From a phage, in assembly GCA_019566835.1 (NCBI GenBank), contig GCA_019566835.1_3045.2: a stretch of DNA of 35,772 nucleotides; one strand, 5' to 3'. Made by a program: the position numbers and the translations under genes. Shown piece after piece: positions 3,955 to 35,772 of this stretch. The notes below the pieces were generated by a model, which saw only the letters and a program-made list of their open reading frames with translations, made no database searches and was not told the DNA's origin. How positions within the stretch are numbered: position 1 is the first letter of the stretch; every line of letters starts with the position of its first letter.

Positions 3955-3972
3955 AGAGGGCTTCGGCCCTCT
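3955..3972 (+). promoter_or_regulatory. C(UUCG)G tetraloop stem-loop in the 37-38 intergenic spacer
   Basis: AGAGGGC-TTCG-GCCCTCT gives a 7-bp stem with a UUCG loop, immediately after the gene 37 stop and before the gene 38 SD. No clean U-tract follows. Confidence 0.45.
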
Positions 3973-8174: not shown

Positions 8175-8203
8175 ATAAAAAAGGGAGAGCCGAGGCTCTC
8201 CCT
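8175..8203 (-). terminator. Rho-independent terminator
   Basis: Perfect 9-bp GC-rich inverted repeat GGGAGAGCC/GGCTCTCCC followed on the minus strand by a 6-U tract, just downstream of the 49-aa ORF. Confidence 0.7.
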
Positions 8204-9686: not shown

Positions 9687-9827
9687 TTACCATACTAGTG
9701 AATGTAGTGCCATAATAACATCAGAAATGAAAAGCACGACTTGAATTAATCCAAACATTACTCCATAATATAGTGCTATTAATAAAATAGCAAGGGCTAA
9801 TGAATAGCCCAAGATTTTCTTAATCAT
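9687..9827 (-). CDS. Small hydrophobic peptide (46 aa)
   Basis: MIKKILGYSLALAILLIALYYGVMFGLIQVVLFISDVIMALHSLVW, read from the sequence; its start overlaps the stop of the ORF upstream. Confidence 0.35.
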   Translation of the reverse strand: MIKKILGYSLALAILLIALYYGVMFGLIQVVLFISDVIMALHSLVW

Positions 9828-9978
9828 TAGTAGATAACAACACAAATGTTAAATATGCACACATACCCTGAGCTAAAGCTTGCGAAAACACACTGCTGGC
9901 ATCAATACAGATAGTTAAAACACATGCTACTATCCAACAAATAAATGAAATAACTCCTAATAATTTTGCAATATTCAT
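9820..9978 (-). CDS. Small hydrophobic peptide (52 aa), paralog of the 51-aa peptide
   Basis: Start taken at MNIAKLL with SD GAGGAG. Shares the motif SSVFSQALAQG with the neighbouring peptide (SVFLQASAQG). Confidence 0.45.
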   Translation of the reverse strand: MNIAKLLGVISFICWIVACVLTICIDASSVFSQALAQGMCAYLTFVLLSTND

Positions 9979-9988
9979 AATATTCTCC

Positions 9989-10144
9989 TCAACTATTTTT
10001 AGAACCAATGTACGCGAATAATGATAAAATCGCTAATACGCCCTGAGCTGATGCTTGCAAAAATACTGAAGTTTCTCCAGTTATTACTGTTCCGATGCAT
10101 AAAAAGAACCAACAGAAAAAGGCTATACCGTGAACAAATTTCAT
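9989..10144 (-). CDS. Small membrane peptide (51 aa), possibly Ac
   Basis: MKFVHGIAFFCWFFLCIGTVITGETSVFLQASAQGVLAILSLFAYIGSKNS with SD GAGGAAAAT; lies between stp and gene 52 where T4 carries ac. Confidence 0.45.
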   Translation of the reverse strand: MKFVHGIAFFCWFFLCIGTVITGETSVFLQASAQGVLAILSLFAYIGSKNS

Positions 10145-10151
10145 ATTTTCC

Positions 10152-10232
10152 TCACTGGCGTCCGAAGACGCCTTTGGTTTTAAGATTGTTACGATAGAAC
10201 TGCATCACGTGTTCGTTGTGGAAATTACTCAT
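10152..10232 (-). CDS. stp: Stp peptide (suppressor of pseT; 26 aa)
   Basis: Translation [26 protein letters not shown] matches the T4 Stp peptide as I recall it. The start overlaps the ndd stop (TAATG). Confidence 0.9.
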
Positions 10233-10690
10233 TAATATGCCTGCAAAACGAATTTAAAGTTATCAGCCAACATACGGTTCATTTCTTCAAGTGTTTGATA
10301 CTCAGAATGATGATTACGAGTAAACGCCAAAGCTAACTGACCTTTACCAAATCCTGTCGTCAGAGGTTTCATCTTAGAAGCAGGCAGATAAAATACTGTG
10401 TATGGAACATTGTTATTTGCAATAGTACGTGCAAGCTGAGACCGACGTTGACGAATATGACTTAGAACTGCACTGAATCCTTGCTTAGAACGCTGATTAC
10501 CTACATAAAATCGTGCAGACACGCATGGATTACTAAATGGACGACCATCTAATTTACTTACTAAAAAGTAAAATCCAGGTTTAGATAAAATATCTTTATG
10601 CGGAGTTCCCAAAAACCATTCACCACCCTTGATTGTACCAATAACAGTAGCACCTGCGTTGTTCAGATCAGTAACAGTCATATATTTCAT
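10232..10690 (-). CDS. ndd: Nucleoid disruption protein Ndd
   Basis: Start taken at [33 protein letters not shown] (SD GAGGAA), giving 152 aa; T4 Ndd sequence and position. Confidence 0.85.
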
Positions 10691-12587: not shown

Positions 12588-12607
12588 AAAAGGGCCGAAG
12601 CCCTTAT
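12588..12607 (-). terminator. C(UUCG)G tetraloop hairpin, weak terminator or mRNA stabiliser
   Basis: Minus strand reads AAGGGC-UUCG-GCCCUU followed by UUGUUUUAAG. Confidence 0.45.
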
Positions 12608-12803: not shown

Positions 12804-12821
12804 AATTTTCCTTAATATGAT

Positions 12822-12837
12822 AAGGGCCGAAGCCCTT
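12822..12837 (-). promoter_or_regulatory. C(UUCG)G tetraloop hairpin at the rIIB stop
   Basis: AAGGGC-UUCG-GCCCUU overlaps the rIIB stop codon. Confidence 0.4.
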
Positions 12838-13774
12838 ATTTAAATTGTTCAGTAACGTCTTCAACCACTTCGTATTGGCAGGTACGCATTTTAGCATCAT
12901 TGTAATCAATCGGAATTGATACTACATCACGTGGATGTACTTTAACTTTTACAACTCGACTGGTTGAACTGCCAAAGTGACGAATATAAGATTTAGAACA
13001 TACATGCAGACCACGAGAACAAGTTTGTGTATCATCGTCATTCACACGAGTACGCGGCATTTTAACTACTTTACCAGGACTGTTATCAAAGGTGTTTGAG
13101 TGACAGTCAAAGTAGTTGTCACGAACTACTTTCCAAGCATAGAAGTAACCATCTTCGGTGATTTCAATATCGTTTGCTACCAAGAAATCAAAGAGTCGAG
13201 ATACCGCTTTTTGGCTTGGGTTTTCCAGCAGATTTTCCAAGAACGGAAAATAAAATTCAAAATTTTCGCCTTTTTCCATCGAGTCAAGAATACGATCAAC
13301 CAGACCAGACCGTAATTCGATATTTTGATAGAACAAGCTTCCGCCTTCAATTCGAACATCACCGGAAATATATTTTTCAACAGCGCGACGAACATTAATT
13401 TTTTGTGCAGCTTCTTCCAGCTTATCCGCTACAAGCAGATTAAGAATTTCCTGGAAGTTTGAATGAGTATTAGGAGTTGCGTTATAAGTTACACCGTCAA
13501 CAGTAATTGAAATGAATTTTTTAGATGCATTCCAAATAATGTCAGATTTAGCAACTGGAGCAATAACTTCATCGCTATTAACTTTAACTGTAATATCACC
13601 GCTAATAGTAACTTTAGGGCGTTTAGCTTCTTCAGCATTTTTCAAAACACGACGAATTGTGTCAACCGATACACCTTGCCAATCAGCCAATTCCTGTTGG
13701 GTGTAATTACCACTTGAATACAGTTTAACAATTTCAGCTTGTTCGTTTTTGGTCAGGCATTTAATATTGTACAT
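12836..13774 (-). CDS. rIIB: rIIB protein
   Basis: 312-aa ORF, MYNIKCLTKNEQAEIVKLYSSGNYTQQELADWQGVSVDTIRRVL...; T4 rIIB length and position. Confidence 0.9.
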   Translation of the reverse strand: MYNIKCLTKNEQAEIVKLYSSGNYTQQELADWQGVSVDTIRRVLKNAEEAKRPKVTISGDITVKVNSDEVIAPVAKSDIIWNASKKFISITVDGVTYNATPNTHSNFQEILNLLVADKLEEAAQKINVRRAVEKYISGDVRIEGGSLFYQNIELRSGLVDRILDSMEKGENFEFYFPFLENLLENPSQKAVSRLFDFLVANDIEITEDGYFYAWKVVRDNYFDCHSNTFDNSPGKVVKMPRTRVNDDDTQTCSRGLHVCSKSYIRHFGSSTSRVVKVKVHPRDVVSIPIDYNDAKMRTCQYEVVEDVTEQFK

Positions 13775-18101: not shown

Positions 18102-18119
18102 AAAGGCCCGAAGGCCTTT
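18102..18119 (-). terminator. C(UUCG)G tetraloop hairpin terminator
   Basis: AAAGGCC-UUCG-GGCCUUU overlaps the stop of the lipoprotein gene. Confidence 0.45.
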
Positions 18120-29264: not shown

Positions 29265-29298
29265 CAAAAACGAAAAAAGGAACCCCGAAGGATTCCTT
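29265..29298 (-). terminator. Rho-independent terminator downstream of soc
   Basis: Minus strand reads AAGGAAUCC-UUCG-GGGUUCCUU (9-bp stem, UUCG loop) followed by UUUUUUCGUUUUU. Confidence 0.7.
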
Positions 29299-35244: not shown

Positions 35245-35589
35245 TTAAAAGAATTTAAACTTTTTCTTTGATCTTTTATTAAATGCATCTTGTAGTTGCA
35301 TTGTAATACATTTTTCTACATGAGGAGCTAACTCAGCTTTTCTTTCTTGGTCAAGAACAGCAAAGTCCATTACGACTTTTCCATCAACCCAATCTAATTT
35401 TGTCACATACACAATGTGTGTAGAACCATCTTCTAGTTTAATGACAATCTCCTGGATAACATTTTCCATGGCAGATTTAATTATCTTAAGAGATTCATTA
35501 AAAAGACGTTCTTTTCTTTCTTCTTCCCCCTCCGAAGAGGGGGATTCATCGATAATTTCTAGATCTAAATCTAAATCATCTTTATTCAT
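35245..35589 (-). CDS. 40: gp40-position protein (114 aa)
   Basis: Start taken at MNKDDLDLDL (the ORF-track start at 35607 is GTG); lies between uvsX and gene 41 as in T4. Confidence 0.55.
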   Translation of the reverse strand: MNKDDLDLDLEIIDESPSSEGEEERKERLFNESLKIIKSAMENVIQEIVIKLEDGSTHIVYVTKLDWVDGKVVMDFAVLDQERKAELAPHVEKCITMQLQDAFNKRSKKKFKFF

Positions 35590-35772
35590 TAAATTCTTCC
35601 ATATCACTTAGCTGATCTAGGTCAGTTTCTAAATCAGCAGCTGATTTACTTTTACTTTCTGGAGATTTAAATTTTTCAACTTTTGAGTTAATTAATTCAT
35701 CAACTTCCGCTTCAACAATTTCATTACTATCAATAGCACCTAACTGATAAGCACGCTTAATAGCATCACGGA
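35582..35772 (-). CDS. uvsX: 3' end of uvsX (RecA-like recombinase), partial
   Basis: Frame open from the window edge; translates to ...RDAIKRAYQLGAIDSNEIVEAEVDELINSKVEKFKSPESKSKSAADLETDLDQLSDMEEFNE, an acidic tail. Identity is by position upstream of genes 40 and 41. Confidence 0.55.
   Translation of the reverse strand, partial: RDAIKRAYQLGAIDSNEIVEAEVDELINSKVEKFKSPESKSKSAADLETDLDQLSDMEEFNE

Follow-up and report, generated by a model that had tools for sequence, protein, structure and literature searches.

The stp gene of a T4-like phage carries in its last codons a C(UUCG)G hairpin, selected on the sense strand, which we tentatively interpret as a post-transcriptional punctuation mark or barrier at the junction between stp and the ac gene which follows. 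The hairpin is found at positions 10157..10172, minus strand, of the window, which is the whole stretch of 35,772 nucleotides of phage DNA that has been analyzed. It extends over codons 21–25 of stp and one further base, the first of codon 26. The 5' arm GGCGUC (10172-10167) and the 3' arm GACGCC (10162-10157) form a perfect stem of six Watson-Crick pairs, while the UUCG loop (10166-10163) is closed by a C:G pair. The end of stp on the minus strand reads AAA GGC GUC UUC GGA CGC CAG UGA GGAAAAUAUG, with two nucleotides separating the stem from the UGA stop. A preliminary description of this DNA, which named no strand, had placed a 6-bp GGCGTC-TTCG-GACGCC stem at the end of a 26-codon stp gene, immediately before the SD of the next gene. 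Both statements agree with the minus strand sequence, the SD being the GAGG at 10153-10150.

The 16-mer alone has a predicted stability of -10.0 kcal/mol, which becomes -12.2 kcal/mol within its local context. In the fold of a 141-nt stretch, the hairpin is the sole element shared by the MFE and centroid structures; the overall structure of this stretch is not unusual (z = -0.6). No Rfam family is found at the hairpin site, the only match being a chance-level TarB at 9783-9864 (E = 0.5), and the T4 reference record has no annotation for the hairpin. The 1994 T4 ndd record (X75802) presents AAACGTCT at 2570-2582, where every genome has AAAGGCGTCT. This discrepancy is probably a gel-compression error caused by the stp hairpin.

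The window corresponds to a T4-like phage: the 1.1 kb around the hairpin are 94–99% identical to several hundred Tequatrovirus genomes, with phage Aplg8 as the top match (99.4%). All genes around the hairpin are on the minus strand, in the order ndd, stp, two tandem paralogues of the ac family, a 52.1-like ORF, and gene 52. The ndd gene, which codes for the nucleoid disruption protein, is found at 10232..10690, and stp, with 26 codons and a TGA, at 10152..10232. The TAA stop of ndd overlaps the ATG of stp (TAATG), which indicates that ndd, stp, and ac make up a tightly packed early transcription unit. The first ac paralogue (9989..10144) codes for a small membrane protein of 51 amino acids and is served by the SD just after the hairpin. 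The second one is found at 9820..9978; both belong to phrog_2501. The T4 reference has a single ac copy, the extra copy of the window being placed directly after the block formed by the hairpin, the SD, and the ATG. In phage G3F7 (L052, MZ234035), an ATA at about 236-240 replaces the ATG start after the hairpin; the usual start of its ac gene may not be used for translation.

T4 Stp is an inhibitor of type IC restriction and an activator of PrrC. The 26 amino acid peptide from the window is 100% identical to the annotated T4 Stp, and the identical peptide is encoded in 423 phage records; stp is also annotated in RB51 and in T4 strain 147. From its size of 26 amino acids, its conserved N-terminal 18 residues, and its place beside ndd, the gene would be a true stp. 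The N-terminal 18 residues are the conserved part of Stp, and removal of the last eight codons lowers both activities only moderately (Uzan & Miller 2010, PMC3014915).

Class enrichment, codon choice, and comparison across phages, taken together, indicate that the hairpin is more than a chance occurrence. The window contains 21 CTTCGG sequences, compared to 6.95 ± 2.7 in shuffles, and seven CUUCGG sites have a stem of at least six pairs, where about 0.03 would be expected. Perfect hairpins with a stem of at least 6 bp and a loop of 4 nt are also abundant (36 in the window, 15.2 ± 4.0 in shuffles); six of them are sense-strand hairpins with a UUCG loop. The genome is AT-rich, and each of the four codons GGC, GTC, TTC, and CGC makes up only a small share of its synonymous set in the window (12%, 8%, 22%, and 15%, respectively). 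The hairpin uses all four. GVFGRQ has 1536 synonymous codings, and in stability the native coding ranks first, tied with its UUU variant. Codings as stable as the native one have a summed probability of 1.7e-4 under the codon usage of the window.

All seven long-stem (at least 6 bp) CUUCGG hairpins in the window have the sense orientation of the local genes. Of the six besides the stp hairpin, five are found at or just after a stop codon, beginning within -8..+1 nt of it: 3955-3972 on the plus strand, and 12590-12605, 12820-12839, 18102-18119, and 29277-29298 on the minus strand. The 5' arm of 12820-12839 holds the stop codon of a 312 amino acid ORF. U-runs are present in two of the six (12590 and 29277), which are terminator-like, and absent from the other four. 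The sixth hairpin (35525-35544, minus strand) is a second case which is wholly coding: its 8-bp stem, UCCCCCUC-UUCG-GAGGGGGA, encodes SPSSEGE near the N-terminus of a gene 40-like ORF (35245-35607; head vertex assembly chaperone, phrog_999). There is also a hairpin with a CUCG loop, of the UNCG type, at 8182-8203 on the minus strand, between a motA-like ORF and gene 52, with the 9-bp stem AGGGAGAGC-CUCG-GCUCUCCCU.

Tuerk and coworkers, in 1988, reportedly described the T4 CUUCGG hairpins as intercistronic. The stp hairpin, in contrast, is intragenic, 13 nt from the next AUG. In other respects it resembles the C(UUCG)G hairpins of T4 mRNA: it has a CUUCGG with a C:G closing pair (minus strand, 10167-10162) and a GC-rich complementary stem, and it is placed on the sense strand of a T4-type early unit, directly upstream of the next RBS. 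As for the unusual thermodynamic stability of the family, the stp hairpin has a predicted -10.0 kcal/mol for the 16-mer. The discovery of these hairpins in T4 mRNA dates back to 1988 (Tuerk et al. 1988, as told in Hall 2015, PMC4371310), and they are now textbook knowledge. The stp hairpin is a further example of this known kind, and the sole increment is the quantified dual-coding constraint. In the literature we have searched, no paper ties stp or ndd to a hairpin. T4 also has structured initiation regions, with a split SD in genes 38 and 25 and a sequestered SD in e, soc, and 49 (PMC3014915). Like them, the stp hairpin adjoins an SD in a T4-type mRNA; unlike them, it is placed 5' of the SD and neither bridges SD and AUG nor sequesters either.

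In order to compare different phages, stp loci have been gathered from viral contigs, metagenome contigs, and GenBank phages by means of the pattern which codes for the N-terminus, a criterion independent of the hairpin. The comparison set includes 23 T-even lineages in which stp has the hairpin and ndd is complete. Across these lineages, all four 4-fold sites of the hairpin are free of transversions, versus 11 of 40 in ndd (Fisher p = 0.010). In fact, the 4-fold sites of ndd are near saturation: the window and JS98 differ at 28 of 49, and 22 of these differences are transversions. At 2-fold sites, the same two sequences have diverged at 5 of 9 in stp codons 1–20 and at 13 of 35 in ndd. This equal divergence argues that stp has not been recently transferred. 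Two further 4-fold sites in stp, Val9 and Arg14, are likewise invariant. The comparative signal of the hairpin comes from only four 4-fold sites, and its conservation may be partly gene-wide.

Pairing is complete in all 90 base-pair cells (100%) of the 15 distinct T-even sequences. The stem variants are C3U (JS98 type), A12G (metagenome contig L038), and C16U (RB51 type and contig L027). Each of them gives a G.U pair in the sense RNA; in an antisense RNA or a DNA cruciform, they give A.C mismatches. The RB51-type C16U also makes a UAA stop, which shortens the peptide to 25 amino acids. The loop of the VR7 type is UUUG, equally favourable by Turner parameters. Codon 26 varies freely at its last two positions (CAG, CCU, CUG, UUG, UAA). 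Compensatory double changes are impossible, since the partner of each synonymous stem position is the second position of a codon. The restriction of stem changes to G.U pairs and the UUCG loop in sense orientation point to the structure of the sense mRNA as the target of selection. The preliminary description had proposed that this 16-nt sequence codes for peptide and at the same time forms a stable RNA structure. The rare C-ending codons, the lack of 4-fold transversions, and the presence of only G.U-compatible changes are in accordance with this proposal.

Not all stp alleles have the hairpin. It is absent from the T2-type Tequatroviruses (T2, BCPSen_003, ASO78A, NIC06P2), where the Stp tail is NFGILGSKNS; this allele is found at 459-545 of locus L003 (T2) and in L055, L056, L057, and L030. 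In L055 and L056, the last 36 nt or so of stp, including a GGAG-type RBS, are the same as the 3' end of the first ac paralogue of the window. The T2-type sequence suggests that a deletion or recombination took out the hairpin together with the first ac paralogue.

Homologues of stp, mostly unannotated, are also found in many siphophages of 42–56 kb (Kagunavirus, Drexlerviridae, Bas95). One of them is located at 601-678 of locus L006 (K1ind2, GU196280, 40077-40154), others in L017, L019, L020, L022, L029, L032, L033, L044, L054, L058, and L059. The N-terminal core is nearly identical in most of them (Bas95 and P818 are slightly different), while the tails are variable. These homologues indicate that the anti-type-IC peptide is far more widespread than the T-even phages. 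In Kagunavirus-type siphophages (K1ind2 and several contigs of 43–51 kb), the peptide ends in KGVFGK, coded by GGR GUG UUU GGA AAA UGA, which has no stem. Other tails without a hairpin are GVLGK in Bas95 and GRLGK in P818, and some Drexlerviridae have an unrelated Stp form of 31 amino acids. In two Kagunavirus-like contigs, L016 (226-450) and L036, stp is fused in frame with the downstream gene, giving an ORF of 74 amino acids; the cause is a frameshift or else a sequencing error. No match to the stp N-terminal pattern has been detected in the bacterial and archaeal genome contigs scanned.

It had been suggested that related phages be searched for the same peptide coded with synonymous changes which destroy the stem. 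Such changes are indeed seen outside the T-even phages, where Kagunavirus-type genomes code for GVFG with other codons, but not within the T-even alleles. The recurrence of a G-x-hydrophobic-G-basic tail in phages without the stem argues that these amino acids are conserved for the sake of the peptide itself. In the alleles of T4, RB51, JS98, and VR7, an RNA stem is overlaid on this tail through codon choice. Judging from the sequences, the hairpin is an addition made in a single lineage of stp alleles and no requirement of stp.

The hairpin is followed by a compact junction, UGA-GG-AAAAU-AUG, at 10142..10154 on the minus strand. The stop codon (10154-10152) overlaps the GAGG SD (10153-10150) of the first ac paralogue, whose AUG (10144-10142) is 7 nt past the stop. 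Of the 15 aligned sequences, 14 have TGAGGAAAATATG unchanged, the exception being L027 with one A-to-T change. The whole block, hairpin-NN-UGAGGAAAAUAUG, is almost invariant over four genera (again with one A-to-U in L027). The gene which begins at its AUG belongs to at least two families of membrane proteins of about 50 amino acids. In a Mosigvirus which has no stp, a hairpin is found at the equivalent place, between ndd and an ac-like gene. The SD of ac, GAGGAA, does not contain GGAG, the RegB motif, which is present in the next RBS downstream, GAGGAGAA. The initiation region of ac, GGAAAAUAUGAAAUUUGUU (10142-10160, minus strand), is A/U-rich, and we take it to resemble loosely the translational operators of the RegA type.

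Several other explanations should be considered. A sense-strand terminator or pause site after stp is very unlikely, even if some GenBank records annotate one: "putative transcriptional terminator, -10.30" appears in MK327937, and similar labels appear in several others. Like an intrinsic terminator, the stp hairpin is a short stem-loop, rich in GC, placed where a gene ends, and the equivalent site in a Mosigvirus has a terminator-like hairpin with a U-run. Nevertheless, the 3' flank, AGUGAGGAAAAU, contains a single U in 8 nt in all T4-type sequences, so that the stp hairpin lacks, on the sense strand, the U-tract of a canonical terminator. Furthermore, the consensus scan makes no call on the minus strand, and the next gene begins 13 nt on, with no promoter of its own. 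The terminator label given by annotation pipelines is unjustified by the sequence, which calls for caution by annotators. In the plus-strand reading, TTTGGTTTTA comes directly after the palindrome, and here the scan does call a terminator, GGCGTCCGAAGACGCC TTTGGTTTTA, with six U within the first 8 nt in T4-type and RB51-type sequences. A terminator for antisense transcription is hardly credible, and we have rejected it. The U-rich run is not conserved, being interrupted in the JS98, VR7, L027, and L037-type alleles (4 of 8), and the natural substitutions break the antisense stem as A.C mismatches. Also, the antisense loop, CGAA, has no special stability, no TATAAATA late promoter is found upstream on the plus strand within the window, and all seven long-stem CUUCGG hairpins are oriented in the sense direction. 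As for the ribosome pausing proposed in the preliminary description, nothing in our analysis points to it. The protection of a 3' end, also put forward there, is plausible and corresponds to the reading that we prefer.

The position of the hairpin next to an SD might also correspond to an element for initiation or coupling of the ac-family gene. The hairpin would mark the 5' edge of the RBS and keep the SD free, or bar the backward sliding of post-termination ribosomes, leading to efficient initiation of the next gene. Such an element would account for the overlap of the stp stop with the SD only 7 nt before the AUG, and for a block of hairpin, stop/SD overlap, and AUG which remains constant (TGAGGAAAATATG, 14/15) even if the family of the next gene varies. 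The CUUCGG hairpins at 3955 and 12820 are also found 11–16 nt upstream of a start, with an SD between. On the other hand, a strong SD with good spacing should be enough unaided. According to partition-function folding of 238 nt, the native accessibility of GAGG..AUG is 0.39, rank 1325 of the 1536 recodings, and strong-hairpin codings have a mean accessibility of 0.38, versus 0.50 for weak ones. We consider such a role unlikely. In its form as an RBS insulator we have discarded it, since the native coding of GVFGRQ is predicted to leave GAGG..AUG less accessible than most of the 1536 codings folded.

The same block could be a module boundary at the DNA level, a short homology used to swap or delete small genes 3' of stp. 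It would resemble the promoter-less half of the PeSL cassettes of T4-type phages, which consist of a stem-loop, an early promoter, an SD, and an ATG (Arbiol 2010; Comeau 2014, PMC4122927) and have been reported to drive such shuffling near ndd (PMC4122927). As in a PeSL, an SD and an ATG come after the stem-loop of stp, the site borders on variable small genes in the region of ndd, and identity stops exactly at the ATG, with at least six different downstream starts. The extra ac paralogue of the window is inserted there relative to T4, and the T2-type allele resembles a deletion ending at the next similar RBS. Unlike a PeSL, the stem-loop is coding and no early sigma-70 promoter has been called, there being only 2 nt from the stem to the stop and SD. 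Homology is sufficient for recombination, with no need of a hairpin, the substitutions of the G.U type speak for selection at the level of RNA pairing and not of DNA, and the boundary could be a consequence of conservation instead of its cause. This explanation seems quite improbable. Finally, the stem might have no function, as a by-product of the peptide GVFGR and shared ancestry. The G-x-hydrophobic-G-K/R tail conserved in siphophages without the stem explains the amino acids without any RNA, T-even phages which have no hairpin are viable, and transitions, the commonest changes, happen to fit the stem in this case. There is little chance that this is the whole explanation: the coding by rare codons is the most stable of 1536 (P = 1.7e-4), four 4-fold sites have no transversions despite the saturation of ndd (p = 0.01), and the hairpin belongs to a strongly enriched sense-strand family.

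We tentatively prefer a reading in which the selected sense-strand hairpin would act as structural punctuation, post-transcriptionally, on the polycistronic early ndd-stp-ac mRNA. It is encoded by rare C-ending codons in the C-terminal codons 21–26 of stp, which are dispensable for function. The conserved cassette, formed by the hairpin, 2 nt, a UGA overlapping GAGG, 5 nt, and the AUG, joins stp to whatever gene for a membrane protein of about 50 amino acids lies next. The intragenic position of the hairpin might be due only to the short gap of 7 nt between stp and ac and to the tolerance of the Stp tail. Each ribosome finishing stp would melt the hairpin, which would refold on ribosome-free RNA. 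Most probably, it would block 3'-to-5' exonucleases such as PNPase and RNase II, so the ndd-stp segment could outlive a cleavage in the A/U-rich initiation region of ac. This step is taken from general knowledge about mRNA decay in E. coli, where exonucleases stall at stable stem-loops. A point against an exonuclease barrier is that an RNA trimmed to the stem would barely keep the stop codon of stp. For this site, the literature we have searched reports no 3' ends, half-lives, or structure probing, and it contains no T4 set of mapped 3' ends; a review of T4 transcription does not mention it. As T2-type phages manage without the hairpin, any benefit must be small.

A related idea is that the hairpin is a translation-sensitive switch which controls the dose of Stp and of the downstream membrane protein, forming only when the stp mRNA is free of ribosomes. 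The formed hairpin would then fix the 3' end of the mRNA or direct a nearby cleavage. We regard such a switch as doubtful, with a low probability. If it were true, the loss of the hairpin in the T2-type and siphophage alleles would represent an adaptive shift in Stp dosage, and an RNA element would have as large a part as protein function in shaping the tail of an anti-defence peptide.

In summary, a classic T4 CUUCGG hairpin is kept by selection even where it shares its sequence with the tail of a protein-coding gene, and this has now been quantified. Beyond being a tidy example its importance is small: the kind of hairpin was already known and is no surprise. The Stp tail is under two constraints, the peptide motif G-x-hydrophobic-G-basic and, in T-even phages, also the RNA stem. 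Stp both disarms type IC restriction and triggers the suicide nuclease PrrC of the host. If the hairpin were to tune the dosage of Stp, it would bear on the balance of the phage between anti-restriction and the triggering of abortive infection.
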